Shown piece after piece: positions 8,066 to 54,100 of a stretch of 64,000 nt of DNA. The position numbers and the translations under genes are program-made. This stretch comes from a virus. Position 1 is the first letter of the stretch. Every line of letters starts with the position of its first letter. The stretch is taken from positions 1 through 64,000 of IMG/VR virus record IMGVR_UViG_3300020463_001735; one strand, given 5' to 3'. The notes beneath the pieces were generated by a model. That model was not told where the DNA came from and made no database searches. It was given only the letters and a program-made list of their open reading frames with translations.

Positions 8066-9283
8066 ATGGCTTTACAGATAAGACGTGGTACCGACGCACA
8101 GAGACAAGGAATAACACCTAAAGCAGGTGAACCAATCTTTACAACAGATACAAAAAAGTTGTTTATAGGAGATGGATCAACAGCTGGTGGTGTTATTGTA
8201 GACACAACAGGTAGTCAATTAAGTGATATAATCGAAGATACAACACCACAACTAGGTGGGTCATTAGATCTCAATAATCAAAATATAACTGGAACAGGTA
8301 ACATTAACATTACCGGACAAATTTCTGCTTCTTCTATTGATCTAAAAGGTTCTATATTTGCTGATGATTCAACACTGCTCGTAGATGGTATTTCTGGAAA
8401 AATTGTTGGTCCTGTAGAATCTAACGTTATCGGAAATGTTACTGGCAACGTAACAGGTAATGTTACAGGTAATTTGACAGGTGATGCAAATGGTAATCAC
8501 TCAGGTACATTTGATGGAACAGTTACAGCAGTTGGTCAGTTTGAAGGACAAGTTTTAGGTTCAATCTTTGGTGATGATAGCACTATGTTAATTGACGGTG
8601 TAAACAATAAAATTGTTGGACGAATTCAGACTACAGAAATTATAGATATAGATGCAAACGCACTTGCTTCTGGTGTAAATGCACTAAGAACAACAGGATA
8701 TATGCAACCAACTGGTTTAAATTCAGGTATAGGAATACAAACAAAGGCTGCTAGAAATAGTGGATCAAATACTCCTGTTACATTACAACCAGGAGACTTT
8801 ATCAAAGATATTATTGCAGCAGGTTATGATGGCACAGACTATACCACTTGTGCTGTGATTAAAATGGGCACAGACAAATATAAAACTATCCAAACAGGAA
8901 AGATGGCTGGTAGAATGATCTTTACAGCATATAAAGATGACGGTACATTTGGTTTAGATACTATTATGGTTTTCCAAAGTGATGGTAAATTATCAATTGG
9001 TGCTGGCGACAATCCTCAAGCTAAATTAGATGTTGCTGGCGATGGAAAATTTACAGGCACAGTAAATGCTCCAGCTTTCCAAGGTGATGTTACCGCAGAC
9101 GATTCAACTGTAATGTTCAACAGTAACACAGGACAAATTACTGCTCCAGGCACTGTAACCCTTGCTAGTTATACAACTACAGCAAGAAATGCATTAACGG
9201 CTGCTAACGGCATGATAATTTATAACACAACTACAAGTAAGTTAGAAGCATATGCTGGCGGTAGTTGGGTAGCTTTACACTAA
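8066..9283 (+). CDS. tail fibre / virion protein with Mtd_N (hyaluronidase-like) N-terminal domain
   Basis: MALQIRRGT...GEPIFTTDTKKLFIGDG N-terminus, GNVT repeats, three DDST repeats, C-terminal GMIIYNTTTSKLEAYAGGSW fibre motif. Confidence 0.75.
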   Translation: MALQIRRGTDAQRQGITPKAGEPIFTTDTKKLFIGDGSTAGGVIVDTTGSQLSDIIEDTTPQLGGSLDLNNQNITGTGNINITGQISASSIDLKGSIFADDSTLLVDGISGKIVGPVESNVIGNVTGNVTGNVTGNLTGDANGNHSGTFDGTVTAVGQFEGQVLGSIFGDDSTMLIDGVNNKIVGRIQTTEIIDIDANALASGVNALRTTGYMQPTGLNSGIGIQTKAARNSGSNTPVTLQPGDFIKDIIAAGYDGTDYTTCAVIKMGTDKYKTIQTGKMAGRMIFTAYKDDGTFGLDTIMVFQSDGKLSIGAGDNPQAKLDVAGDGKFTGTVNAPAFQGDVTADDSTVMFNSNTGQITAPGTVTLASYTTTARNALTAANGMIIYNTTTSKLEAYAGGSWVALH

Positions 9284-9936
9284 GTTTTTTTTTCGTAATT
9301 TTCTACTACACGTTTTTGCCAAGGCACTGTAAAGTCCCACATATTCACAGTTTCATCACTTTCAACTGATTCTATTGCTTTTTCCCAGGGCACTGTCATT
9401 AAATGTGTCTTTAGTATCATTCTTTCATTATCAGTTGCATTGGCAACACCATGAAAACGATTAACATTTAAAAAACTTGGATTAAAATATTCGTGGCTTT
9501 CAATTTTATTAGATGGTTTGTTATCTAATGTGTCATAAAAATCAATTACTGTTTTACCTCTAAGTGGAATGTTAAAAGCACTAAGAGCCCTAAAATTGAC
9601 AGCAGTATGTGGCGGTAGTAATCCTCCAGGAGGAAACCAAATAAAAGTAAATCTTATTACATGTTTTATTTCATCCCAGTTTAATTTGACATCAGATTTT
9701 ATTGCAATATTTGTTACCCTGGCATATAGTTCGTTCCATAACGGAATATTACAATCATAACACAAATTATAGATTGTTTGTTTTGTTGCATCAGTTCCTA
9801 TAACAGCATGATCTCCTATTTTAGATTTTACTTTTGTTTTAAAAAAGTGATCTAATTCTTCTTTATCCGATTCAAAGAAATCATAACCTTGTGTTTCTGC
9901 ATATCTATCTTCAAACTTATATCTAAAGTTACCCAT
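9280..9936 (-). CDS. Fe/2OG oxygenase-fold protein with HxA motif (halogenase-like)
   Basis: FPPGGLLPPHTA...NIPL...NVNRFHGVAN...ER; aligns by eye with the neighbouring HxD paralogues but has Ala in place of Asp. Confidence 0.6.
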   Translation of the reverse strand: MGNFRYKFEDRYAETQGYDFFESDKEELDHFFKTKVKSKIGDHAVIGTDATKQTIYNLCYDCNIPLWNELYARVTNIAIKSDVKLNWDEIKHVIRFTFIWFPPGGLLPPHTAVNFRALSAFNIPLRGKTVIDFYDTLDNKPSNKIESHEYFNPSFLNVNRFHGVANATDNERMILKTHLMTVPWEKAIESVESDETVNMWDFTVPWQKRVVENYEKKT

Positions 9937-10777
9937 TGTTTACCTCCCAACAATTTTCATAGTCAAAACTTAATCTATACAAATATCTATCTCCTTCAAC
10001 TGCATTACGTTTATGAATACTATGGAACTGATCCATAAAAATAAAATCTCCAGGTTGCCAATCATCATGATGCCAAATATATTTGTCTTGAAAAATGTGT
10101 GCCATTAATTTATCAAAGATAGGTTGCTTGTCTAACTTCTCTTCTTTACTGTCTCTAAGCCACATTTCTCTGATGTAATGAAATGTAAAGTATAATCCTT
10201 CATCACCATCATAAGGATGTGTATATACCAAAGGCTTGGTAACACCATATTTAAAATCTCTTGCGCCGCCTTTAAACATTTTTAATTCTTTGTCATCTTC
10301 GTCTAAGTCATAAAATGTTCCGTTTTCAAATTTGAATGTACAATCTATTTGTTTGTAAAAGTTTTTATCTTCTGCACTTAAATCTCTATATGCTTGTCTA
10401 GTATCACAAAAGCTGGTTACACTATTTTCGCCAGGACGTACACAATAAAGGGCTACACAGCATTCTTTGCCGCTTTTCCTACCATTACCATTACTATGCC
10501 AATCCAATTCTTTGTCTGCAAATATACCAATTTTCTCACCGTCTTTGCGTTCGTTAGTGACTCTAAACAAGCCAGGATAATCTGGGTGCATAAAAAACTG
10601 CTCTGGTTTAAGTATATTACCAATTAGTTCACATACTCTAAGTATACCTGCTTCGTCTAAATTTTGATTTCTAACAAGTACTACATTATCTTTTACAATG
10701 TTCTTACCCCAATCTTGAACTTCCGTATCTGTCATTTTGTCAAAATCAATTTCGTATCTTACAGCATCCATCTGCAT
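9929..10777 (-). CDS. TauD/TfdA-family dioxygenase
   Basis: VVLVRNQNL, WHSNG, TSFCD..AY..L, KPLVYTHP, WQPGDFIFMDQFHSIHKR, RYLYR. Confidence 0.8.
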   Translation of the reverse strand: MQMDAVRYEIDFDKMTDTEVQDWGKNIVKDNVVLVRNQNLDEAGILRVCELIGNILKPEQFFMHPDYPGLFRVTNERKDGEKIGIFADKELDWHSNGNGRKSGKECCVALYCVRPGENSVTSFCDTRQAYRDLSAEDKNFYKQIDCTFKFENGTFYDLDEDDKELKMFKGGARDFKYGVTKPLVYTHPYDGDEGLYFTFHYIREMWLRDSKEEKLDKQPIFDKLMAHIFQDKYIWHHDDWQPGDFIFMDQFHSIHKRNAVEGDRYLYRLSFDYENCWEVNNG

Positions 10778-11505
10778 TAGTTATTTTCTCCTAATAAAAT
10801 TTTTTTTGGATTTTGTGTTTTTCCGTTTACGTAATTACGCCACAGTACAGCATTTTCGAGTTCAACATTAAACTCTTCTTTACTTAATTTACCTATACTA
10901 AAATTTCCTACAGTGTCCCAAACATCTGCAACAAGATGCCATCTATCTGTTTTTCCGTTATTTTTAACATAATGATAAGGACTTACATCAGCCATATAAC
11001 AACCACCTTCTTCTAATTTGTATGTGTGATCACCATGAACAAAATCCGTGCCTTCTGTAACTATAGGTATATGCAATTTAAACCCGCCGCCATCACTGTG
11101 CTTATGTATAATACCCTGTGGTGGCAAATAAGATAACCTTACTCTTCTAGGATTCATACCCTTTTCATATAAGAAATTAACAATTTGTTTCCATATACCT
11201 TTACAAGCAATAGTTTCTACTTCATAGTCTAACATATGATATATTTTATGTTGCCTAGCATAATCTAAATTAAAATATATACGAGGATTAGGATTGGTTT
11301 TATCTTGTTCTGAATAAGGAGGATCTTGTAATCCGACGTTAAAATTAAATCCATTATATAGACTACCATCTTGTGAAGTTATACACAAACCATGTAATCC
11401 TCCTTTTTGGATATCATTTGATTTATTTTCTTTTAATAGATCGTATAGTTCTTTTTTTAATTGTTTTGTGTCAAACTTCCAACTATTTTTTACCACATAG
11501 TTCAT
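10777..11505 (-). CDS. aspartyl/asparaginyl beta-hydroxylase-like Fe/2OG oxygenase
   Basis: RVRLSYLPPQGIIHKHSD..LHIPIVT..HYVKNNGKTDRWHLV. Confidence 0.75.
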   Translation of the reverse strand: MNYVVKNSWKFDTKQLKKELYDLLKENKSNDIQKGGLHGLCITSQDGSLYNGFNFNVGLQDPPYSEQDKTNPNPRIYFNLDYARQHKIYHMLDYEVETIACKGIWKQIVNFLYEKGMNPRRVRLSYLPPQGIIHKHSDGGGFKLHIPIVTEGTDFVHGDHTYKLEEGGCYMADVSPYHYVKNNGKTDRWHLVADVWDTVGNFSIGKLSKEEFNVELENAVLWRNYVNGKTQNPKKILLGENN

Positions 11506-12152
11506 ACAAGTAAACTTTCCTTATTAGGTAAGTTATCGTATGCTATACCAAAAATTAAAACAATTCTTATATTATTAGAAGGATTTACAACTCTGTGCAA
11601 CCATCCTGTATTTACAAAATATGCTTCTCCAAGTGTCATATTTAAACTTACTTCTTCACTTTTTGTTTTCCATTGAAATAAACTTCCTTCTGTCTGTACA
11701 GGAATTTGCACACGGCATAACACACTTGTATCAGTATCTATATGATAGTTAAGTTCATTACCACCGTGCATGACGCTTATACGTGTTCTATAGGGTGTTT
11801 TAAACTTGGTGTTTAAATATTTTTGTATATGATCGCTTTCAATGTCATTTCGCCAAATTGTGTAGTTAGTTTCATTTATAACATCATCTGAAGAGCATTG
11901 TTGTAAAAGGATTTGTGAATAAGTTTCGCTTGCAGTAAACGTATTTTTTACATCACAGTGTTGACTGATTTGATAATTATCACCTCCTAAATCGTTAGCT
12001 TTGTACGAACATGCAATTTGAAAAATTTGATCAACTACTTCTTGTGGTACATCATCAGCTACTGTTCCGTGTGTAAGCATTTGATGTCTTCTAGGTCCTG
12101 TGCCTTTCACTCTGCTTCTACGTGTTTCTTTAATTAAACATTTTTCTGTCAT
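11502..12152 (-). CDS. aspartyl/asparaginyl beta-hydroxylase-like Fe/2OG oxygenase
   Basis: RTRISVM..YHID..RVQIPVQT..GEAYFVNTGWLHRVVN..RIVLI. Confidence 0.75.
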   Translation of the reverse strand: MTEKCLIKETRRSRVKGTGPRRHQMLTHGTVADDVPQEVVDQIFQIACSYKANDLGGDNYQISQHCDVKNTFTASETYSQILLQQCSSDDVINETNYTIWRNDIESDHIQKYLNTKFKTPYRTRISVMHGGNELNYHIDTDTSVLCRVQIPVQTEGSLFQWKTKSEEVSLNMTLGEAYFVNTGWLHRVVNPSNNIRIVLIFGIAYDNLPNKESLLV

Positions 12153-12159
12153 CTCTATC

Positions 12160-12831
12160 CTATCTATTGAAAGCTGGATCTAACCATTCTGTTTTTGTTA
12201 TCGGTCGGCTTACAGTCATTTTAAATAAAGACTTTTCTAGTAACTGTGTATATAGTGGATTTTGTTCTCCATGCCAAGGAGATCCGATACATAAAGTAAT
12301 TTTTTCCTCAGGATCAGGATCAATGCTATGTGCATGACTGCCGTCCATTGCATAGCTGTTGTAATATTCAGGAACGTATATTTTGTTATAATTTTTATCA
12401 ATAAAATATAATTTACCAATATTTCCATTTAACACAATTCGGTACTTATATTGTAATGTTCCTATTTCAGATTCTGCACTATCCAGATGAATATTTAATC
12501 CTGTATGAGGATTAGTCCTTAAAATAGTTACCCGTCCAGGAGGAGACATAAAAGGAAAAATTTTTTCTTGGCAGATTTTTTGTATAGTAGGACATTTTTT
12601 TCCTGCTGTAGTGTATTCAAATTGTCCTTGTGTTGTATCAATATGTGTACCGTCATTTAGTTCTACCCTACCGCCCATTCGTCCGCCGCCGTTGTAAATG
12701 GCTATCATGCGGCAACCTCTAAACTCGTTCCAATGATGTACGTCTGCAGATAATTCTAGTACCTCTTGTAGCATGGCTTGTCTTTCGATATCTGTAACAG
12801 CTATGTCAAGAGCGGCAAATGTAAAACTCAT
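12160..12831 (-). CDS. Fe/2OG oxygenase-like protein
   Basis: RVTILRTNP..NIHLD...MDGSHAHS..EKITLC. Confidence 0.6.
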   Translation of the reverse strand: MSFTFAALDIAVTDIERQAMLQEVLELSADVHHWNEFRGCRMIAIYNGGGRMGGRVELNDGTHIDTTQGQFEYTTAGKKCPTIQKICQEKIFPFMSPPGRVTILRTNPHTGLNIHLDSAESEIGTLQYKYRIVLNGNIGKLYFIDKNYNKIYVPEYYNSYAMDGSHAHSIDPDPEEKITLCIGSPWHGEQNPLYTQLLEKSLFKMTVSRPITKTEWLDPAFNR

Positions 12832-13547
12832 TAATTAACCTTTATTAATTTAATAAACCATTTAGTAGGATCAAACTCCCACCATTTTTGCCCTATTTCA
12901 TAACTCCCAGCACGTCTGTGATGATTGCGGTGCCAGCCCTCTCCAGCAGTAAGTATATTTGCAATCCAACTGTTATTTGGTTGTGCATTCTTATGTCCTA
13001 AAATGTTTAATATTCCGTACCCATGAAATGCTAAAACTACCGGCATAGCATAACCAAATATCATAAGCAAAGGATCAATTAAACTAAAAACTACAATTAT
13101 ACCAATATTTAAATGAAAATAATACTTGTGAAAGAATCTAAGTAAAGAATCTTGTAATAGTCTTTTTATAAACTTACGTTTAATTTTAAATCCATATCCC
13201 CATGTGTTTACGTATACTGCCCATATACCTTTTACACTGTGACTATGTGGATCTAACTCTGTATCACTGTGTGCATGATGTTGTCTATGAGTAGCGGCCC
13301 ATGTCATTGCAGGACCTGCACCTGCAAACATACCTAATATATTTACTGCCCAAGGATACCATTTGCCTGCTTCAAAGGTTTTATGACTGTAGTATCTATG
13401 ATAACCACCACTTATTGCCACTATAGCTATTATATACCACCACAAAAAAGCGCCGATGAACATCCACAATTCTCCGAACATAAATGCAGGTATTAGCATC
13501 AAATGACAAAATGTATGATTAATTAAAAGTTTTGTTGTGTTTTCCAT
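12831..13547 (-). CDS. membrane fatty-acid desaturase (delta-9 type)
   Basis: Three His boxes HRYYSH, HRQHH and GEGWHRNHH; SDTELDPH; hydrophobic segments; WEFDP. Confidence 0.9.
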   Translation of the reverse strand: MENTTKLLINHTFCHLMLIPAFMFGELWMFIGAFLWWYIIAIVAISGGYHRYYSHKTFEAGKWYPWAVNILGMFAGAGPAMTWAATHRQHHAHSDTELDPHSHSVKGIWAVYVNTWGYGFKIKRKFIKRLLQDSLLRFFHKYYFHLNIGIIVVFSLIDPLLMIFGYAMPVVLAFHGYGILNILGHKNAQPNNSWIANILTAGEGWHRNHHRRAGSYEIGQKWWEFDPTKWFIKLIKVN

Positions 13548-13548
13548 A

Positions 13549-14247
13549 TTAGTATTTATTTGGTTGTTTATCTACTGGGTATGCAACACTGATATTACTA
13601 GCAGTGCCTTCCTTTACAGCCTGTTCTTGGCCGCTTACTAAGTACTCTTTAAATTTAATATATTGCGGATTGTCACCTTGAATATGTTGCCACTTGTCAT
13701 TAGGATTTGCTTTTAGCTTCCATTCACGTAACTCAGGACGCATATTTACTGGCGCACAAAGTTCAAACCTTTCATTACCAGAACCAGGACAAATTTTGTG
13801 ATAGTAATGGGTTGCATTTAAATACCAAACAGTACCGTTCGGCACTTGAAGATTAAAAATGTCCTCACCTGTATCTACATCAATGTTTGCGTTACCTTGC
13901 ACTGTGACGTGAAACTGTCCATCTAGATAGTATCTATCTTTGTGCCAGACACTCATTTCTTCACTGTCATCAGAAGTATATGCAAGCACTATCCAATCTA
14001 CCTCTAAAGGTTTTTGATATATTTTTTCAAACTCTACAGCATGTTTATCTACTACTTGTGCAAATTCTTTGATAATAGGCAGTTGACTTGTCTTATGAAA
14101 ATGCCAAGTTTTATATGTGTGAAAAAATTTCCCACTAATATTACTTGACTCTGTCATAGGAAAATTGTCAATAATATATTTGCATTGTTCTAAGCACCAT
14201 TTAGGATCAAACTTATCAAAAATAGTATGTGTTGGTCCTATTTGCAT
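13549..14247 (-). CDS. Fe/2OG oxygenase-like protein
   Basis: WHKD...GTVWYLNATHYYHKI...ERFEL. Confidence 0.6.
   Translation of the reverse strand: MQIGPTHTIFDKFDPKWCLEQCKYIIDNFPMTESSNISGKFFHTYKTWHFHKTSQLPIIKEFAQVVDKHAVEFEKIYQKPLEVDWIVLAYTSDDSEEMSVWHKDRYYLDGQFHVTVQGNANIDVDTGEDIFNLQVPNGTVWYLNATHYYHKICPGSGNERFELCAPVNMRPELREWKLKANPNDKWQHIQGDNPQYIKFKEYLVSGQEQAVKEGTASNISVAYPVDKQPNKY
13553..13559 (-). promoter_or_regulatory. possible late promoter ATAAATA, 5 nt before the desaturase ATG
   Basis: Minus strand reads ATAAATA-CTAAT-ATG with no SD; it lies inside the 3' end of the upstream gene. Confidence 0.45.
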
Positions 14248-14879
14248 TATGCAAACTCCACATTTTTTATTACAAAATCAACTGTTTCAGGCACAGTTTT
14301 AACATTTAACACTACCCAATAACTAGGATCGAAACTTGCATTAAACAGTGTATGAACTTTTGCTGTGTTTAAAAAATGCATGTGACCACTAGTCCAATGT
14401 AAAATTTTATTATCTAAAATAAAATGTACTCTAGGAGCATTAAAATTTACAAGAGGCATAATAATTCTAAAACTACTAAAATCTTTTCCGTAAAAATCTC
14501 TATGCGGCGGAAAAAATCCTCCTGGATTTAATTTAAGAATATGGCTTCTAAAAATTTTATCTTTTATAGGCTTAATTAACGTATTTAATTTTTCATATTC
14601 TAAAACAGGTGTAGGAACATTAAAACTATCTTCTAACCAATTGGTTCCATGTTCCTTGTTATATTCTTTGAGAGAATCTAAGTCAGGTCTGCCTGACAAA
14701 CCTCCATCTGCACTAGTAATGCTAAGTCCCCATCTGTCTACATTTTTTCTTGGATTATATCTTACATATTCAAAATTTTCCTCGGTCCAGTCAACAAAAG
14801 CATCTGTATCATGTAGATTAGGACTTAGTAGTATTTGATCTCCATAGGCTGTAAGTGTAGAATATAATTCTATTGACAT
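14247..14879 (-). CDS. aspartyl/asparaginyl beta-hydroxylase-like Fe/2OG oxygenase
   Basis: RSHILKLNPGGFFPPHRD..FRIIMPL..FLNTAKVHTLFN. Confidence 0.7.
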   Translation of the reverse strand: MSIELYSTLTAYGDQILLSPNLHDTDAFVDWTEENFEYVRYNPRKNVDRWGLSITSADGGLSGRPDLDSLKEYNKEHGTNWLEDSFNVPTPVLEYEKLNTLIKPIKDKIFRSHILKLNPGGFFPPHRDFYGKDFSSFRIIMPLVNFNAPRVHFILDNKILHWTSGHMHFLNTAKVHTLFNASFDPSYWVVLNVKTVPETVDFVIKNVEFA

Positions 14880-15436
14880 TCATTTTCCTTTTTTGTTTTC
14901 CATTCATCTATTGATAGACTAGGCAATTTTATATCTTGTCCTTTGTATATAACACTTTGAAAACAATTTGTACTATCTTCATTGCAGGTTCTTAGCATCA
15001 AAGGATGTAATTTCCAAGAGCTATCTAGTTTGCTTGCTAATCTATTTAATGCTTTTCTCCTCTTAAGATCTTGCATACTAATAAAAACAGTGTCGTATGT
15101 ATTTAAATAATTTAGTTGGGCTTCGGCTAAATGTATGGCAGGAGTACGCTCATTTGTATCGTAATAAAGATGACTTCTTCTATGTGCAGGATTGTAATAG
15201 GTCCTAGTTAACAATCTATAACACCCATTGTAAAATTCTTGTATTGTTGCAAATGCTATTAGTTCTTGTTTTTCGACCAAAAAGAACCATTCTACAAATC
15301 TAGTTTTGTAAATTTCTGGAAGTCTATCGAACCAATCTGTGTTACGCCAGTCACCCGGATAACACAGTCTTTTAAAATATTCTAGTTCAGCTAGGAATCT
15401 ATCCTCACCAAATTCTTGTAAAGTTTGTATGTGCAT
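14870..15436 (-). CDS. hypothetical protein, possibly GNAT-fold
   Basis: Start reassigned to ATG 15436 because the upstream TTG is a -35 box; LIAFATIQ..YRLLTRTYY resembles GNAT beta strands. Confidence 0.45.
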   Translation of the reverse strand: MHIQTLQEFGEDRFLAELEYFKRLCYPGDWRNTDWFDRLPEIYKTRFVEWFFLVEKQELIAFATIQEFYNGCYRLLTRTYYNPAHRRSHLYYDTNERTPAIHLAEAQLNYLNTYDTVFISMQDLKRRKALNRLASKLDSSWKLHPLMLRTCNEDSTNCFQSVIYKGQDIKLPSLSIDEWKTKKENECQ

Positions 15437-42122: not shown

Positions 42123-42129
42123 TATTTAT
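42123..42129 (-). promoter_or_regulatory. late promoter core ATAAATA
   Basis: Overlaps the stop of the giant ORF, upstream of the 42106 start. Confidence 0.55.
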
Positions 42130-45100
42130 CGCGGCAAGTCAGTTGTTGAATTCCTTAAGAAACGAGCTATATTTCCTTTTGCTTTACTTAGCTGTGTTCC
42201 TAAATCGCTCCAAGTTCTTCCTTGCTTTCTAATTATAATTACTTTGCTATTTTCTGGTGCAGATTGTGCAAGAGAAAGTGTTGTACCTGATACAGTAAAC
42301 TCTGGTGGAAGTGTTTGATCACCTTCTGGTGAATCCATTTGTGGAGCACTTACTGTGTTTCCACTTCCGTCAACTGTTTCAAATGTATAACTATCAATAC
42401 TATTCTTTCTCATACGCTTGCCTGCAACAAAAACTTCAAATTCGTTTACACTTGTAGGTGTCCAATCTAGTTGAAAATCTGTAGTAGTTCCGTCACCGTC
42501 TAGTGTAAGAGTAATAGTTTCATCTTTGTAAGGAATATTTTGATCTATACCTTGTTGATATATTTCTGTGCCTTCTTTATATACATCCTTTGCACCTGTA
42601 CCCATTGTAGCTCTTCTAAGTTGCTTGAGTGTATTTCCGTCTCTTACAAAATATTCAATACGTTCACCTTCAATAAAAATAATACTTGGCATATCAGGAT
42701 TATCATTAGGTTGAGGTAGTTTATCGCCGTTTTCAACTTCTATAGTCTTATCCCATGGATATAAATCTCTTACAAGTAAAATATTTTCTGCTCCTGTGAG
42801 CCTTTTGTAGTGTGTCCTGTTAAGTATATCTTTAAACTGTCTCCAACCAAACTTTTGTATCAACGGTGGGTCAGCAAAATGTATAATATCTATAGTGTCA
42901 TTTTCTAATAAGTCATATGCAATTTTTATATATTTCTTATTATCTGTTACAAAGTAATCAACACTAGGTGTTAGCAGTATTCCATTTTTTACTACCCAAA
43001 CATACTGAGCATCAGTAGCCGGTTTGCGTAATTCAATTAAGCCATTTCTTAAATGCCTTAGGTTATACCAACTAGCAGAGCCTTGTGTTAATTTAGTTCT
43101 TTCTACAATGTCAAATTCTTGTCTTTCTATTCCCTGTGCTTCATCGTTATTAAATGTATACACAGTAATAATATCACTTGACTCATATACATTATCCATG
43201 TATATCGTTCCAGGAGTGCTTATAAATTCACCTGCACTATCCCAATATCCATATGCATATTGTCCATCTTTAATTGCATATACTCTTAGCGTATCACCAG
43301 TTTCGCCTACACCAGGCAACAATGTTATTGTTGAACCTATTTGTTGATCGGGTACTGAAGAAATGTCAAATTCTCCGGCACTAACATAATTCCATTGTAC
43401 TCCATACGTAAGTTCAATATCATTCAAATATACTAACAAATCCTGATGATTGAATGTACCTAAAGGCACTTGCCATAAATCTAATCGATATTCTCTTACA
43501 TCGGAAACAGCAAAATGTTGACTATATCCTGCTGTTAAGATAGTGTTATTAACTTTGACAATAGTATTATGTTGACTAGGTGTGCCACTAAATGGAGTCT
43601 TTTCTAAAGTATATGTAAGCGAACTGCCATCTCCTATAAATGTATCAATCTGTACTGCACTATAGTTTTGTGTAGTGCCTTCGAATATTCCAAAATTAAT
43701 TATTTTATCATTAGCAACAGGTGTTGCAAAACGTATTACAACATTTCCAGGCATATCGTGGGCACTGTCATCACTTTTAATAAGTAAAGTATCTTGTGTA
43801 ACACCGTCAATAGTAGCATAATGTGTCATATTCTCTGTCCAACGAATATTTGTAAGATAATCTATTGTGCTACCATCGCCAACAAAAGTTCCATAATCTA
43901 AAACATTTTTTCCTGCTACATCTAAAGTTATGATATTTACTTTTGTATTTGCAGTAGGAGCAACATCTAAAATAATACTTTTTCTATCTATAGAAAATAT
44001 ATAATCTTCCTTTGTTTTAATCTCGTTGCCTACCTTTAAAAATAGGTTATTATTAAAAGCAATATTTTGTCCAATTGCAAAAGTTTTTGTACTTCCGTCT
44101 CCAAGATAATTAAAACTTCTAATATTACTTGAACCACCTGTTGGTCTTTCGTATACTTGTATATCCACTGTATCTAAAACTTGTCCTGGAATAATTTCTT
44201 CCGGGCCTTTACTTGTGGTAGGAGTTACAAAGCCATCTCCATCTACAGTTATATCTTCTGCAGATAATCCACTAGCTGTTGTATAAGGAAAATCTCCGCC
44301 TTCTATTAATGTATCGTAACCATTAGGATCTGCTAAGAAACTTCCATCACTTGTTTTTTTACGTATTACAAGTGTATCTCCATCTGCTACTTTTATACCT
44401 AAGTTATCAAGATTAAGTATTTTTAAAGACCCGTCGCCGACAAGCGTTTCAATTATAGCGTTAGAATTTTCTATAAATGTACTACCATCATAATTTGGAT
44501 CGTCTATACGTACATTATTTTTGTAAACATTATATTCTACACCACTTTCTAAAGGTTTAGACAGTTCTATTAGTAGAGTGCTACCATCAAAGTTAAATAC
44601 TTCGTCTTCATAGGTATCATCATATGTATCCCATTTTCCGGTAAACCAACCTTCAGCATCAAATCCACCCTGATTTTCAAATCCAAAACTTTTTACTTCT
44701 ACTCCACCATAATCTATACCATCCATTACTTGTGAAATATCTTTTCCTAACATACCAGTGGTAGGATCATAAAGTAAATTAACCCTGTCTTGTGCCACTA
44801 GTAAATCAGGATCTTTTTTGTATTCTATAGTAATAGCTTTTGTATCTGCAGGAGGAGTATCAAGTGTTATACGTCCTTTGAATCTTACATAAGATTTTGT
44901 GTTATCTTGTAAATTAGTATAGGTATATTGACTATTTAAAAGCTCAGTACCACCAACTGTAATTTTTATGTTTGCAGGTTTTACATCTATTGGCCACTTC
45001 AAATCAAATACATATTTGCTACCTGTACCAACAAAACTTTCGCTTTCATTTAACTTTGTAATTATGAAACTAGAGCTAATCCTATCAAATTTTACCCTTG

Positions 45101-48100
45101 TTAAAAAACTTCTAACAGTTTGATGACCAATTACTGCACTTATCTTTGCATCAGTTCCGTCTGGGTTGCTTCCATTTATATCTAAAGTAGGTGCACCAAT
45201 GTAACCACTTCCTTCATTTACAACTTCGATTTTTACTATCTTTCCGTTAACACCTAAATAACTTTTAAATTTAGCACCTGTGCCACCGCCTCCAACTGCT
45301 GTGATTACAGGTGGCTCAGTATATTTAGAACCGCCATCATAAATGTTTACGCTTTTAATTTCATAACTTGCGTTATCCAGCCAATGTCTATAAGGATATG
45401 TTGTAATATCTGATTCTGTACCAACTATCATATCCTGTAGTACTTGTGAAGGATGAGGTTGTATACCCCTACCTTCAACATATCTAGGTGCTAAATCAAA
45501 ATCTGTAATCACTGTATTAGTAGGTTCTATCTTTTCATAACTAGAAAGATATTCACGTAATTTTGTTTTAAATGGTTTTACTTCTTCTAAATAATCCTCA
45601 TAACTAGGTAAATTATCATTGTTAAATGTTATATCTTCTCTAAGTGTTCCAACATTATGTTGAGCTTTTACAAAACTAGTTTTAAATGCCCAATCAATAT
45701 AAGGTTGTTCACTAAATGCATATCTTATACTAGCAAAAAACAGTTGGTTATATTCTTCTTCAAGTTCTACAGTGAATATATCATCACGTATTACTTCAAA
45801 TATTCTACGTTGTTCTACTGTAGGTTGTGCATCATAAAACTGAACATCAAAACTTATACTATCAAACCCATTCAAATTAGCAGTAACATCATATAAACCA
45901 CGCTTAAATTGTATGGTTCCATTCTGTCTACCTATTGTTTTATAATTCACTGTGTAATCAGTTGTTATTTGTTCATCTATTTTTTGCAACAACAACCAAC
46001 CACCTGTGCCTATAGTGCTTATTTTAACAATGTCACCAACTGAATCATTAAGTGGTTCTAATTGATAAGAATAATCAATTAAATAATCTATATCAATTGT
46101 TTCATTAACACCTGTAGCGTACCAATCTGCATACTCCCAATATAGCGTTGTATTGTATGCTTGGCTTTTGATTCTGTTCCAGCTGTTTGTTTCGCTTAGT
46201 CTTTCGTAAATGGACCATTTTCCGTTAATAGTTTCATCTGCTTTTACAAGTGCCGCAAACTTTCTTACTTCTATAGTAGTAGCATCTTCATAATTTTGTC
46301 CTTGATTATTCACAACCACAGTTGTAATTTGGCCTGCATTATCTATTGTAAATGTAAAATCTGCACCTTCTCCGCTATCTCCTCTAATAGTGTAGGTAGG
46401 CGAAACTAGATACCCTCGTCCAGGATCAGTAATAGTTACTCTTACTATTTTTCCATCCTCTATCACAGGAGTTAGAATTGCTTGTTTACTTTTTGCTACA
46501 CCAATAAGTTCAATTTCTGCAAAAGTGTCTACAGATGTATCATATAATCTAGAAATAGTGCTTGGAAAATCTTCTTTATAATCTAAGCCCGTTAAGTTTT
46601 TATTTTCTACAATTAAATTTTTTATAAGCACACTGTTAACACGTTCAATGGTTTGTTTCATTGCTTCTGTGCTGTTAACAAATATACTCTGTCTAGGTGT
46701 ATTTAATATTCCATATTTCTTTTTTGCACCTAATGTAGTATCTGGTACTGGTCTGTTGTTTGTATCGTATCCTATTAAACTATCAAACCATTTTCTTTCA
46801 ATATCTCTATTAGGTTTACTGCTTGCAAGACCATCTGTCAAAATTTGATATTGATTATGCACGTTTGTATCTTGATTATCTAATGTATAGTACTGTACAC
46901 TGATTGCAACATCTTTTCCTGAAATAAGTGTATCGCAATTATTAATTGCAAATTGATTGTTACTAAAGAAACTAACAAATTTATATCCATATGAATAAGG
47001 ATCTGTAATTAATTGTGCAGTGTTAAAAGCACTTTCATTTCTAAATTCATTATTAGGTATAGTTTTCTTATCTTTTACCCAATAAAAATACTTGTCTACA
47101 GAACTTTGGCTTATACTATCATATACTTTTTTAAGAACATAGTTTGTAGTGCTTTTTGCTTGGCCACTAATTCCCTGTGATAACCCATCATTTGTATCAG
47201 CTTGTGCATTCCATAACTCAGGAGTAAGTGTAGACTCTATCCATTCATATACATCTATCGATGCACCACTAAAAAGTTTGTTCCAATTATTTGTACTGTA
47301 TGTAACGTCATTTTGATAAGGATTTAAAAATTTTGCATTGTTTAAATCCCACCATAATTGTCCTACTTGTTCTGTGCCCCATGTGTTTAAGTTATCTACT
47401 ACCACATTTGTACCTGTTGTGTACGTAGCAGGGTCATAGTATGTTTTGTATCTTAGTTCTTGTTCTGCTACTCCTGCAATTTTTCCTTGCAAGACATCAA
47501 TATAATCTAAGTATGCAAGTAGCTCTTTTGTTTTTGTATCATACAAAATAACTTTTTTAATTTTATTAAGATCTACAGGATCTTTGGGTGTTCTAATATT
47601 ATCATATACTGATCCTTGTATACTATAATCAACAAATGCTCCTAATTTACTTGCAGTTTCTAATCTAGGTAATCCGACATACACATGATTTCCTCTTGCC
47701 TCTACATTTCTACCAAAATAATCTACATTTGCATTGTTTAATTGTATAATATCAGCATACAATAATTTTCCATTAAGATTTTCATAAACATAAACTACAC
47801 CATCATCTACATTTGTTTTTCTAAACTTAGTAAAGCTATTATCAAACGTAGTTGGCGATCCAGTTGGAGGACTTGTAGGATCGTTTGTGTATGCAGATCC
47901 TATTTTTTTAATACTAAATACGTCTATTGTAGATTCAAAAATACTGTCTGCATTTTTACTACCAACAGCAAGCACATTTCCTGTATATGACACTGTTGTT
48001 CCAAATTGTTCTGCCCTTTCATTTTTTGGGCTATATAAATTTTGATCTAATACAAATTTTCCGTTTTGTTGTCTGTAAATATATACAATTCCTTGATCTG

Positions 48101-51100
48101 CATCTTTCTGATCATCGTAAGGTGCACTTATTGCAATACTCATTCCGTCATCTGATATTGAAATACTATCTGCAAAACCTATCGTTTTGCTAGGTGCTTC
48201 TATTATCTCATCGAATTCAAAGAAACCATTGTTTACCCTATATACAACAACACCGTTTGGCTTAGATTGATCATATGTAACACTAACAATAAGAACATCA
48301 CCATTTGCATTTACATCAATTGTATTACCAAAAACTCCTAAGGCTTCTTGATTGAGCACTGTACTACCATCTGTACTATCATTAATAACTGAAAGCGTGG
48401 TGTCATTTGGTAAGTATCCAACGTAATCTACAAGATCATCAGTGCTTGTCCAATCACTACTGTTAAAAGCACCTGCGGCTAAATTAGTACGTGCGACCAA
48501 TAAAGAACCGCCTAAATAAACAATATCATTTTCTTTATATGTGCTAGAAGCACTAAACTCACCTTTAAATTTTTTATTTTTTGCAGTATCCCAATCAAAC
48601 GTAACATTATTTTCTATACCTTTTTTATACTGATATATTTTTCCGTTATTACCATCTTGTGATGCATATACAAACAATCTATATAAATCATTGTTTTTAG
48701 CACCTTTTACTGTTGTTCCTAAATATTGATTGCTTGCTCTATATTCGTTAATATAATATCCTACAGGATCATAAGTACCTGAAGGTTTACGTTCAAAAAT
48801 ACTAAACATACCTTCGTACAAAAGATCACTTAGATTATTTTGTGCATCAGCATCTACAGGAATAGCAAATACTTCTTCCCAATCATTACTATCTGGTCCA
48901 GGTAAATTAGGTTGTCTAGGAATACCACTAACTTGTGCTTCGTCATAAAACCAATATTCTGACTCTAGTAAAATACTTTGTACTGTCAAAGGAATATTAG
49001 CACTATTTTGAAATACTAAAAACTTTCCTATACCAAACGGAGCATACGAAAATCCTACTGCATCAATTTGCCCAAATACACGATCTCCTTGATATATTGG
49101 ATCGGCTCTACTAAGATCACCAATAAATTCTATTTCAACATTATCACCGTAATCGTTACCTAAACTAAATGTTCCATTTGTGTTTTTTACAAAGATAACA
49201 CCATTTGATCCGTCTCGTATGTAAAATACAACGTCTGCTTCTGCTCCTGTACCTAGATCTCTTACACGTAAAGCATCGCCACCACCTAAAACTTTTGGTT
49301 CAAAAACATTACCGGTGGCCGGATCGGTCTTTGTAAAATTAAATTTTATATATCCATCCCAAACATCATACACTGTTTGTTCTTTATTTGTTATTGTTGT
49401 AGTTAATCCAATATCATTTATATTTTTATATGTGTTATCACTCCATCTAGGCAGCTGATCTATAAAAAGATTAATTTTACTACCAGCACTAATATTATCG
49501 GTTAAAGTTTTAGGAGATTTCATTACGTATAAGTCACTTAACAAAGGATTGGTTGTTCCACCTGCTCCTGGTGCACCTTGATTAGTAAGTGTTCTAATAT
49601 AGCTTCCTATTGTATTTTCACTGTTTATTGTGCTATCATCGTCTACATCTAATATATTAAAATATCTTCTATTTTGATTTGTTTGACCGCTTGGAGTAAA
49701 ATCTTCGTATATCAAACCTTTACCGCTATCTCCTAAAGAGCTTTCGGTAGGGCCAGTGTTATAACTTTGTCCAGCGTTTATTACCCAGTAACCTCCCCAT
49801 TGTGCAGTGTAATCTGCGGCATCACTCTGTAATTTTTTCTCATATTCTCCTACAAAGTCACCGTTATTTAAAAATAGACTACCTGTGGCTGGAAAAGTTC
49901 CATTAACATCTTTCATATATATAGCTACTCTAGCTAGTTCATTGTATTTGTAAGCCACTGTACCGATAGCACCAGTGGTTTCTAAAATATCTCCTACTAT
50001 AGGCACATTAGTTGCGGCATCAACATATAATACTGCATCTACTTTATAAATAATCGGATGTTCTCCTGTTATAAAGTCTGTGCCAACTATGGGATTATAT
50101 ATACTATTAAAAGGTGCAATATCTTGTATAGAACTTTTATTTTGATAAGCATTAGATCTTTGATTCCATTTTAAACTAATTGTATCACCAATTTTTGAAC
50201 CCTCGTATTGATTAAACGGAGCTCTTACTATTACATGATCTGTAGCTGTATTTGTAAAAGGATAATTACCAGTTGCTAGAACAACAGGCGCATCATCTGT
50301 TTCAGCTGTAAGTCCTAGAGCTAGTCTTATCTGTGTCACACTTGCAAAACTTTGAAAATCAATAGACGCTTCTGCGCCTTGTATGCCAACACCTGCTTTC
50401 CATATACTATTAGCATATTTTACAATGTCATTTTTAAGATAATTAGTTGTTGTAATAAATTCATCTTGATATCTAGTTTTTACTTTTGATGCATGAGGAG
50501 ATCCTACGTAAATATATTTTCCATCTTCACTTACATCTACACTTGCACCAAATCTTTCTTTGTCCATAGCCGCGCCAGCTAAAGGTACTAATTCTGCAAT
50601 CAAAATAAAATTATTGCCTTGGCTGGATCTATTGTACACATTTACTTTTCCATTATCATAATCAGGTAACCCTACAGCAAGAACTGTATTCCGTTTGTTT
50701 ACTGCAATACTACTTGCAAAATTATGTAATGCACTATCGTCACCGCTTTGATTTTCTACAGTCTGTTGTAAACTATAGTCTCTAGAATTTTTTACAACAG
50801 CCCACTTATCATCTGCAGCTTTGTCTATCCAAAGAATATCTCCATCTTGTAAATTAGCTTGTGCAATCTTGTTTGCATCATCAACGTTAGAAGCCCTCAC
50901 TTTTACAAAATTTGTTATATAACCAACACAACTTGCTATGTCCTCTATTTCTTCATCTGTATCATTTATCAGTGTAATTTTATCACCTGTTACAGATTTT
51001 ACTTTATAAAATCCATCTATACCAGTAACATCAAATACTCCTATAATATCGTCAACAGCTACACTACGGAATGTTTCTTTTAGATTCAAAGTAAAGTCAT

Positions 51101-54100
51101 CTGTACCACCTGTAACGCTAGTAATAGCATTTGTTGTATTTGAATATTTGTATACACTCCAGGATAAGTTATCCGTTCCTACCCATACATAATCTCCTTG
51201 CCGCAAATTTTCAAATGTTAAATTTACAATATCATCATATGTTGAAGATATAACTTTTACATCATCTAAATCTACATAGCCTGCATTTCTTACATATGTA
51301 TCTTCTATGTATTTTGTTGGAAAAGGAGCATGTGTGTAATTATCAGTCTTTTGATATACTTCAAAAGGACGTATTTTATACACAAGGTCTGTAGAAGCAC
51401 TATCAATAGTTTCAACAAGTTCTATTGGTTGAGGAGCAAGTCTAAATGAACTTTCATCTAGAATATAATCAACTTCCTGGAATGACTCTACAGCGCCGTA
51501 CTGGCCGTCCTTGATTGCCCATTCTTCATAAAATTGCAAACTATCTTTATCAGCACTTGCAAGGGCATCAAACATTTTAGTGAGAGAATTTTTCGTTCCT
51601 TTATCTTGTAACATGCCTTGATAAAATTTATATTGACTTACGTCATCATTTATAATATTTTCTAAATACTTACGCTTTTGATATCCTATCAGATGTTGAG
51701 CAAGTCTTTGTTGCTCTACATCAAAATTATCGCTATCTAAATCATAAAAATCTGTAAACTGGATTGCTTTATAATCCCAATTAGAATATAATCCACCTAC
51801 AGGTTTGTCAGTGAGCCTATTCCATTGCTTATCAATAAATGTTTCTGTGCCGGGTATCTTTTGATCGGCTGCATAATAAAATTCTTTATACTTTACAATG
51901 GCTCCTATATCATAATCTACCCAAGATTCCCATTGAACAATTTTTGCTCCGTCGTAAAAGAAACCAGGAATACTAATGCTGCCGTTCCATTCATCTGTTC
52001 TATAACCAGCAACCTTTATACGTTCTTGTCTGTATCCAGGTTCTTGATCATAAATTACATCACCAAACACTGTGCGGTTATCTAATAACACAACATGTTC
52101 CTTTTGAACTAGAGGTAATGTTACAGCGTATATTCCGTCTGCTGTATTCCTTGTTTGTATGTAGAATTCATTTGGATTTTCTCTGCCCACTGCTAAATAT
52201 TCAGAATTTAATTTTTTACCATCAGCTTTTACCAAACTGTATCCGTAAATTGTTTCATACACATTTGCAACTACACTATATTCACTTATAAATTTTAAGT
52301 ATTGAGCTGCAGGTGATAATGTAATTAAAGTACCATTATCCCATCTTTGTGTAGACCAAAACATAAATTGTTTTGCACTATATTTCCAGTCTTGTACAAC
52401 TGCCTCATTGCCTTCATAATTATCAAATACAAAACCTTGTTCTTCTAACCAGGATCCGTAACCTATCATAAAATCAACAACTTCTTGTAATGTGTCAAAC
52501 GTAGTCCCGTATTCGACTTCTTTTATAATATCTCTGTTATAAAGTTTAGCAAAACTAGCTCTTACACCGCCGGTCATAGGTAATTCTGCTAACTTTACAG
52601 TTTTATCTCCATCTAGTGTAACTCCACTAGTATGGGACTCTGTAACTCTATAATATGCACTTTGAAATTCAACAATATATCCTTTTTCATAATACTTGTC
52701 AGAGGCCCATTTTAGAAAGTCTTCACTTATTCCTCCAATAGTTATTACAGGATCTTTTTGTTGTTTTATGACAGGATGGGTTTTAAAGGTTGCACTTGTA
52801 TTGCTATATCCCTTTACTGTAAATCCTCCTATTACTTTTTCTACAATGACTCCAGAATATGCAACAGTTTTTACAGGTGTACTTGTATTTAAAAATATTT
52901 CATAATTTTCATTTGGTATGAAAACATTACCTTCATTCGTTGGACTTCTACTATCAAGTATTAATTTAAATTTTGCCTTTTCTGTAAAAGCACCTATTTT
53001 TAATCCAATGTTGTTTTGTATAGATGATATGTTATTTTTATAATCTTCAAAACTTGTAGTCACATCAAGAAACATATAATCTGCAACATAGTTTACAAAT
53101 CCACTTGTGTATGTTTGTGCAATATCGGAAGTAGATGCAGGATAAACAATTTTATCTAGTTCTATCTGTTTACCAGTATCTTTGTATACTAATACACCTG
53201 CTACATTCCTTATCTGTCTTTGTCTATCAAAAGCAGTAGCAAACATTTTTGATGGACAATTTAAAATGCAACTACTAATCAAACTAAATGGATACTCGCT
53301 TGACCTGCGCCAAGCACTTTCTACAGGTGCTCCGTCACCAAATTTAAAATTATCTTCTATACCTGTGCTTGTAAATCCTTGTGCATACCCACTAGCAAGT
53401 GGACTCAATAGTTCTCCGTTAGGACCAGATGGTATGTGATTAGTTAAACCTGGACGTTTGTATTCATCTACAAATTTAGCAACCTTGTTCGGTTCGGCTA
53501 TTTTTCCTTTTTCTATATCTTGCCACATCACTAAGTTATCACCAGTGTAAGGTGCTGGACCATAATTAGTTTCCCACCATGTAGGTTTAACACTGAAGCC
53601 TAACATTTCCCAAGGATGTGTGTGAGGACGATCTGTGTCATATGCAACCATATATACTTGTCTCCAATAGCCTGGAAGAACTTTGCCAGAGGGACTCTGC
53701 ATTGATTCGTAATTAAAAGTAAAAGTATCTGATCTAACAAAATTATTTTTTGTATATTCAGTATCAGCTATTTTAGTCCATTCTATAAAATCACTTAGCA
53801 TTGCTTTATCTAAATTTACTTTAGGAGTATCAACAACTCTACGGTCACCTTCGATATAGTCTGTCAAATCAAAAACAGTTGTATCGTAAGACATTTTTAA
53901 ATTATTATAAATTCTATTTTCTAATTCTAGTAATAAATTATCTCTGTAATCGCCATATGCTTTTATAATACTACCATCATGTCCTTGGATTACATCTACT
54001 GTAGTTCTATATGTTGTATCTGTAAACTTAATTGGTTCATAACTTGGATATAATCCTAACTTAGTAGGAGTTGCTGGCACATAACTACCATTTGTGTTTT

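Follow-up and report, generated by a model that had tools for sequence, protein, structure and literature searches.

The 64,000 nucleotides analysed here (the window; positions 1 to 64,000 of the IMG/VR virus record IMGVR_UViG_3300020463_001735) contain a leftward operon (15436-9280), the last gene of which encodes a protein of 218 amino acids that we refer to as the target. As judged from chained profile alignments, the target is a diverged phage Fe(II)/2-oxoglutarate (2OG) oxygenase of the Asp/Asn-hydroxylase-like (PF05118) lineage, in which an alanine is found at the position of the iron-binding carboxylate of the facial triad. It belongs to a small family that is found only in viruses and it is part of a conserved multi-oxygenase module of pelagimyophage-like viruses. 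The interpretation that we favour, with a probability of roughly 0.5, is that of an oxygenase with a two-His iron site that would catalyse a hydroxylation-type step.

Fold, family and active-site residues

The ATG of the target gene overlaps the stop codon of the upstream TauD-like gene, and its own stop codon overlaps that of a convergent tail-fibre gene (8066-9283, plus strand). The AlphaFold2 (AF2) model of this single-domain protein, which was built on the family alignment, has a pLDDT (predicted local distance difference test) of 90.7 and a pTM (predicted template modelling score) of 0.88, and residues 94-179 form the eight strands of a DSBH (double-stranded beta-helix) fold. An exhaustive structural comparison with solved 2OG oxygenases gave VIA Z-scores of 10-13 over approximately 165 residues, with ALKBH6, AlkB and prolyl hydroxylases among the matches. 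The hydroxylases AspH and Cpz10 score 9.7 and 10.0, and the halogenases WelO5, HalB and CurA-Hal score 10.1, 10.2 and 9.9. The DSBH fold is therefore certain, but since halogenases score about the same as hydroxylases, the VIA Z-score cannot separate the two activities. Foldseek searches against the PDB returned generic cupin/DSBH matches only (TM <0.5), and the matches in BFVD are viral Asp/Asn/Pro-hydroxylase-like proteins (TM 0.4-0.55). As far as model comparisons go, both results agree with the fold and likewise do not separate hydroxylase from halogenase.

The target itself matches neither Pfam, including the PF05118 hidden Markov model of the AspH family, nor PHROGs. Six of the 25 family members searched match PF05118 (Asp_Arg_Hydrox), and none of the 25 matches any other Pfam family. 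The best match is that of P0052 (1.2e-10, 42 bits), which lies above the cut-off of 22.6 bits; the other five matching members lie below it. The residues of the target that are discussed in the following are listed here.

9280 to 9936, minus strand: target open reading frame (ORF), ATG start, 218 amino acids; carboxylate-less Fe(II)/2OG oxygenase of the PF05118 lineage
9751 to 9762, minus strand: C59-Y-D61-C62 motif; 58 of 59 carboxylate-less members, but none of the five members with an HxD motif, have D61; candidate relocated carboxylate or metal motif
9601 to 9609, minus strand: H110-T111-A112 (CAT ACT GCT); H110 is the predicted proximal iron His, A112 is at the facial-triad carboxylate position
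9571 to 9573, minus strand: N122, invariant; at the position of AspH His690 in the chained alignment
9493 to 9495, minus strand: H148; 55 of 59 carboxylate-less members have His here, four of the five HxD members a hydrophobic residue; candidate second-sphere residue
9463 to 9465, minus strand: V158, four residues before H162; at the position of AspH Asp721
9451 to 9453, minus strand: H162 (in RFHGVAN), predicted distal iron His; aligned on the distal His of the paralogue family
9421 to 9423, minus strand: R172 (in NERM), predicted Arg for the 2OG C5 carboxylate; aligned on the Arg of the paralogue family
9403 to 9405, minus strand: H178, six residues after R172; the same in every carboxylate-less member, variable (N/H/S/N/F) among the HxD members; might be a replacement ligand or lie in the second sphere

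BLASTP aligns the target with the product of the paralogous gene 14247-14879 with an E-value of 3e-6, placing PPHTA on PPHRD and distal His on distal His. The BLASTP alignment with a second paralogue, encoded at 10777-11505, is weak alone (E 0.11). When the target family is compared with the family of this PF05118 paralogue using hhalign (Prob 81%, E 1.2e-5), HTA falls on HSD, H162 and R172 pair with the distal His and the Arg, and N122 pairs with a conserved His. A preliminary description of the DNA had lined up the HTA codons (9601-9609) with the HRD and HSD motifs of these two paralogues, and the BLASTP and hhalign results confirm this alignment. A chance match of the HxA motif was considered and rejected in view of both E-values (3e-6 and 1.2e-5), the PF05118 match of P0052 and the family alignment.

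The target family profiles A1 and A3 found nothing meaningful by sequence in the PDB, and neither did P0052 or the paralogue alone. The bridge from the target to AspH and Cpz10 in the PDB is made only through profile A4, which consists of the paralogue 10777-11505 and its relatives. This profile matches Cpz10 with an E-value of 1.6e-6, the best match to a solved sequence, and human AspH with 1.3e-3. In these alignments the HsD column of the paralogues falls on HRD of Cpz10 and HtG of AspH, the distal His matches, as does the Arg ten residues after it, and an invariant Val four residues before the distal His of the paralogue family falls on Asp721 of AspH. Chaining the alignments from the target to AspH equates H110 with H679, A112 with G681, N122 with H690, V158 with D721, H162 with H725 and R172 with R735.

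Cpz10, a caprazamycin beta-hydroxylase (PDB 7v4f; PMC9814697), is like the phage paralogues a small stand-alone PF05118-type enzyme (182 amino acids). Its triad and 2OG Arg are H115, D117, H160 and R170 (PMC9814697), and their spacing is the same as in the target, with H115/D117 and H160/R170 corresponding to H110/A112 and H162/R172. The ten residues from H162 to R172 are also found between H725 and R735 of AspH (residue numbers of the two enzymes according to PMC6817910 and PMC9814697). Unlike the target, Cpz10 has a normal HxD triad, and it does not match the target family profile directly by sequence. The chained alignments together with the Cpz10-like spacing place A112 at the facial-triad carboxylate position; an Asp or Glu two residues after the proximal His is absent in the target.

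The closest functional parallel for such a site is AspH, which is linked to the target by the same Pfam lineage in chained profile alignments and by the same DSBH fold (Z 9.7). It has two His iron ligands, a small residue (Gly681) at the carboxylate position, an Arg ten residues after the distal His and a polar residue at the position facing the 2OG C1 carboxylate, which is His690 in AspH and N122 in the target. His690 forms a hydrogen bond with this carboxylate (PMC6817910). AspH differs from the 218 amino acid single-domain target in being a large protein of the endoplasmic reticulum with a TPR domain that acts on EGF domains. In addition, AspH holds an iron-bound water with the second-sphere carboxylate of Asp721 (PMC10915816); the equivalent residue of the target is V158, and this position is hydrophobic or small (V/I/T/P) across the target family. 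From these residue correspondences we infer that the target would bind a metal ion and 2OG with two-His geometry.

Variation at the carboxylate position

Altogether, 64 distinct family sequences were obtained from search matches and from 21 IMG/VR loci. Residue 112 is Ala in 51 of them, Asn in six, Gly in one, Thr in one and Asp in five. H110, N122, Y150, H162, R172 and K176 are invariant in all 64, down to approximately 25% identity, which would argue for a working Fe/2OG core and not for a decayed one. The distal His and the putative 2OG Arg, which the preliminary description had reported as retained, are among these invariant residues.

In close homologues A112 is kept throughout (at least 90% in alignment A1). 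An HxD motif in close homologues would have spoken against the earlier proposal, but only remote relatives with 25-35% identity carry this motif. A112 is encoded by both GCT and GCA codons while the neighbouring positions 113-114 vary freely, so residue 112 is constrained.

The five HxD sequences group in a single clade, which is the deepest and most PF05118-like branch of the family. All PF05118 paralogues in the operon are of the HxD type as well, and the target is the sole operon paralogue without this motif, apart from the neighbouring TauD-like gene, which carries HxN. The position of HxD in the deepest clade and in all operon paralogues indicates that the loss of the Asp is the derived state. 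The rooting of the family tree is unreliable, since the branches to the outgroup (the paralogues in the window) are 4-8 substitutions per site long and the basal node has 54% support. The direction from Asp to Ala, Asn or Gly is inferred from the paralogues and from PF05118, not from the tree.

The Asn forms make up a clade with an SH-aLRT support of 99, and in synteny they are placed exactly as the Ala forms are, with the TauD-like gene on one side and the homologue of the 12160 gene on the other; Thr and Gly are each found in a single sequence. An Asn codon (AAY) is one step away from an Asp codon (GAY) and two steps away from an Ala codon (GCN), which suggests that the carboxylate was lost more than once. 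The range of residues at position 112 appears to fit a dispensable carboxylate, with water or substrate as ligand, better than the single invention of a halide site.

The family is small. A word-indexed search yielded 42 clusters of relatives; only 18 came out of an exhaustive HMMER scan that covered 1.84 billion representatives. Structural look-alikes in the ESM Atlas are 91-100% viral. A tblastn search of 50,697 GenBank phage records did not detect the family, and scans of viral and metagenome contigs with P0047, P0048, P0052 and the alignment of the HxD group (A5) did not reveal loci for HxD-type relatives. Fused forms were not found in an exhaustive search without length limit, except for the unrelated repeat protein P0056. 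This protein (772 amino acids) matches the C-terminal tail of the target (residues 179-213, with a doubled VPW motif) six times, and the tail may be a repeat module that is found elsewhere. The CYDC motif is replaced by S-Y-D-D in one subclade; it might serve as a metal site, as a disulfide or as a carboxylate that has been relocated.

Likely reaction and alternative readings

The target would have descended from small stand-alone PF05118 enzymes that were duplicated many times in the phage operon. Its iron would be held by two protein ligands only, H110 and H162, and 2OG would be held by R172, which would contact the C5 carboxylate, and probably also by N122 and T97. Water or a group of the substrate would fill the third facial position, which lost its ligand with the exchange of Asp for Ala. 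Activation of O2 and decarboxylation of 2OG would lead to a ferryl species that abstracts a hydrogen atom, and, as in AspH with its two-His site, this would most likely end in OH rebound, and thus hydroxylation, or in a similar oxidation. The target would carry out one step of a viral module that also comprises a GNAT-like protein, a membrane desaturase, the PF05118 paralogues and the HxN TauD-like enzyme. The module lies beside tail-fibre genes, and its substrate could be a small molecule, a lipid or a virion protein.

AspH has an HxG motif and two His ligands (H679-x-G681...H725), hydroxylates its substrates and does not halogenate with chloride or pseudohalides, even when these are present in excess (PMC6817910, PMC13168262). 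A carboxylate-less two-His site can therefore still hydroxylate in the PF05118 family. Several points weigh against a hydroxylation-type oxygenase. The compensating Asp721 of AspH is V158 in the target and hydrophobic or small family-wide, so the AspH solution is not copied, and the hydrophobic surroundings of the vacant site would also suit a halide. Furthermore, Ala or Gly at the carboxylate position is, to our knowledge, a hallmark of every natural Fe/2OG halogenase, and the natural 2OG enzymes without the carboxylate that have been characterised to date are mostly halogenases.

The preliminary description had suggested that the target may be a phage radical halogenase derived from the Asp/Asn-hydroxylase-like family. 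Descent from PF05118 and the Ala at the carboxylate position are borne out by our data; the step from HxA to a halogenase is not, and we consider a radical halogenase unlikely. Such an enzyme would bind halide on the iron at the site opened by the exchange of Asp for Ala, the ferryl species would abstract a hydrogen atom, and chlorine or bromine would rebound. The phage would thereby chlorinate or brominate a pathway intermediate, a lipid or a virion component, possibly as a cryptic activating step. In favour of this, HxA falls exactly at the carboxylate position, the Ala is present in 51 of the 64 distinct sequences and is kept under synonymous codon variation, and the 2OG and iron residues are intact. 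The second-sphere carboxylate of AspH is missing, with V158 in place of Asp721, and the hydrophobic or aromatic residues A120, F121 and F155 were acquired along with the loss of the Asp. The model also fits halogenase structures approximately as well as hydroxylase structures (WelO5 10.1, HalB 10.2, CurA-Hal 9.9), and the setting is marine, where halide is abundant.

Engineering studies reportedly found that HxG alone does not convert a hydroxylase to a halogenase, and the HxA/HxG motif is necessary but not sufficient for halogenation. AspH, which belongs to the same Pfam family, has the two-His motif and does not halogenate (PMC6817910, PMC13168262), so the motif is not predictive of halogenation in the PF05118 lineage. 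With the Fe/2OG halogenases (SyrB2/CytC3/CurA-Hal, WelO5/AmbO5, BesD/HalB and AdaV) the target shares HxA/HxG, a two-His site and the superfamily fold, but there is no sequence relationship and the fold subfamilies are different. Pfam searches with the 25 family members and searches of the PDB with the target and its family profiles did not reveal a tie to the SyrB2/PhyH-like, WelO5, BesD, AdaV or DAH families. Moreover, the target orthologues tolerate Asn, which is found in syntenic orthologues, or Thr, which is found in single relatives, and both residues would fill the halide position. Among the 30 neighbouring ORFs that were scanned against Pfam, which do not include all small ORFs, neither a PP-binding or acyl carrier protein (ACP) nor anything suggestive of halide chemistry was detected. 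The structural Z-scores, as mentioned above, do not discriminate.

The viral halogenases that were found in the literature are flavin-dependent (PMC10452541, PMC3037559). VirX1-type enzymes (PMC10452541) are a precedent for halogenases encoded by marine phages, but they differ from the target in fold, cofactor and mechanism, since they use FADH2 and hypohalous acid and not a ferryl radical. A halogenase is thus a possible but unsupported interpretation of the target, and what is striking about it would derive from the motif by itself.

Two further explanations concern the integrity of the iron site. A three-ligand site might have been rebuilt with D61 of the CYDC loop, H148 or H178 as third ligand, either as a relocated carboxylate or as a three-His site, and the target would then be an ordinary oxygenase. 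D61, H148 and H178 are present in 58, 55 and all of the 59 carboxylate-less members, respectively, while of the five HxD members none has D61, one has His at position 148 and one has His at position 178. H178 is located on strand VIII at Arg172 plus 6, a position that lines the active site in AlkB and FTO. However, with the HxD members united in one deep clade, an anti-correlation of this kind would result for any residue specific to a clade, and in P0046 HTA occurs without D61 and the CYDC motif. In addition, the AF2 secondary structure and the usual DSBH strand order would assign H148 to edge strand V, from which the metal-binding strand VII is two strands distant. We regard a rebuilt site as rather improbable.

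It is also very unlikely that the target is an impaired or non-oxygenase paralogue, for instance a binding or scaffolding subunit or an enzyme with another metal or cosubstrate. The loss of a facial-triad ligand often marks pseudoenzymes, residue 112 varies between A, N, G and T, and the target and most family members have no Pfam match. But both His ligands, the 2OG Arg, N122, Y150 and K176 are strictly invariant across approximately 25-95% identity, and the Ala is maintained under synonymous change. Furthermore, 21 of 21 syntenic loci have kept the gene, and its translation is coupled to that of the TauD-like gene.

The operon and its phage context

The target gene is preceded in the operon by eight genes and faces a convergent tail-fibre gene.

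8066 to 9283, plus strand: tail-fibre-like protein with an Mtd_N domain and an Asn/Gly-rich (GNVT)n repeat; convergent with the target gene
9929 to 10777, minus strand: TauD/TfdA-family oxygenase (PF02668, 9.7e-31); upstream of the target gene and translationally coupled to it
10777 to 11505, minus strand: PF05118 paralogue with HSD (Pfam 5.3e-11)
11502 to 12152, minus strand: PF05118 paralogue with HID (Pfam 1.6e-5); core module, in 21 of 21 related loci
12160 to 12831, minus strand: protein with an HLD...H motif, possible oxygenase at motif level only; no Pfam match; core module
12831 to 13547, minus strand: membrane fatty-acid-desaturase-like di-iron enzyme (PF00487, 1.8e-11); core module, in 21 of 21 related loci
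13549 to 14247, minus strand: protein with an HKD...H...NERF motif, possible oxygenase at motif level only; no Pfam match
14247 to 14879, minus strand: PF05118-like paralogue with HRD (Pfam 2.5e-4, slightly below the cut-off); of the paralogues, the one closest to the target
14870 to 15436, minus strand: first gene of the operon, possibly with a GNAT-like fold (a lead from an Atlas structure search, TM 0.53-0.58 to GNAT acetyltransferase clusters); no Pfam match; core module

In the TauD-like protein the usual WHxD is replaced by W-H94-S-N96 (HxN, 10490-10498), which aligns on the WHaD of ScoE and of 6l86. This WHSN is conserved in 18 loci, including that of Pelagibacter phage Mosig. A literature search on functional HxN triads returned nothing useful. 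The presence of two adjacent oxygenases without an iron carboxylate suggests a shared property of the pathway substrate and not a one-off switch to halogenation.

The target homologue is found in 21 of 21 related IMG/VR loci, where it travels with the desaturase gene, the paralogue at 11502 and the GNAT-like gene. The protein encoded at 12160 is present in most of these loci and the TauD-like gene in 17 of the 21. The proteins encoded at 12160-12831 and 13549-14247 are DSBH paralogue candidates at motif level, since their single-sequence hhalign comparisons are not significant. The combination of a GNAT-like protein, a membrane desaturase/hydroxylase-like protein and PF05118 proteins (LpxO/OlsC family) loosely recalls aminolipid modification, although this is speculation. 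The Asn/Gly-rich tail-fibre-like protein (8066-9283) is a conceivable substrate for Asp/Asn-hydroxylase-like enzymes.

A divergent rightward operon encodes radical-SAM enzymes, a DegT aminotransferase, QueC-like proteins, nitroreductases, a carbamoyltransferase and a methyltransferase. The enzyme types found between 9280 and 28298 of the window (Cpz10-like PF05118, TauD-family, kinase-like, DegT as a pyridoxal phosphate (PLP) enzyme, carbamoyltransferase and methyltransferase) resemble those of caprazamycin-like nucleoside-antibiotic pathways, which is a resemblance only. Cpz10 acts on a small molecule, and its pathway also includes a TauD-family enzyme, a kinase and PLP enzymes, among them a transaldolase and a decarboxylase.

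The window has a G+C content of 33%, and its nearest cultured relative is Mosig, a T4-like myovirus. Mosig has a similar cluster, in which an Asp_Arg_Hydrox domain protein is 47% identical to the product of 14247-14879, but the target gene is absent. The IMG/VR record is 80,186 bases long, yet its CheckV completeness is 23%, which is odd for a relative of the approximately 140-kb pelagimyophages. An ORF of 4955 amino acids (42126-56993, minus strand) lies among the structural genes and is followed by ORFs of 1205 and 848 amino acids.

The locus can be compared with the tandem dioxygenase arrays of T4-like cyanophages such as Syn9 (Iyer et al., 2010, PMC2938197; Sullivan et al., 2010, PMC3037559), in which several diverged 2OG oxygenases likewise follow one another, close to tail-fibre and hypervariable genes of a marine T4-like phage. 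According to a proposal made for Syn9 (PMC2938197), such arrays act in the modification of peptides, tail proteins or secondary metabolites. Unlike these arrays, the module described here is of the pelagimyophage type, with Mosig as best cultured relative, and the target is without the carboxylate.

The target family is a virus-restricted, carboxylate-less offshoot of the PF05118 oxygenases and not a demonstrated new halogenase. New families of Fe/2OG halogenases are sought for selective C-H functionalisation, and we know of no Fe/2OG halogenase from viruses or from the PF05118 lineage. There is only a small chance that the family represents the first Fe/2OG radical halogenase encoded by a virus, and the first halogenase to have arisen in this lineage, working next to an HxN TauD-like oxygenase in an abundant SAR11-type phage. 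If this were true, phage infection in the surface ocean would give rise to metabolites, lipids or virion components that carry chlorine or bromine.

The family offers a natural D/A/G/N/T series at the carboxylate position in a small, soluble-looking and well-modelled protein. Because it is without the Asp721 of AspH, it may be a second solution, independent of that of AspH, for operating a two-His iron site or turning it to another use. The module as a whole flags a conserved, uncharacterised oxygen-dependent pathway beside tail-fibre genes in phages related to those that infect SAR11, with up to seven oxygenases, two of them without the carboxylate.

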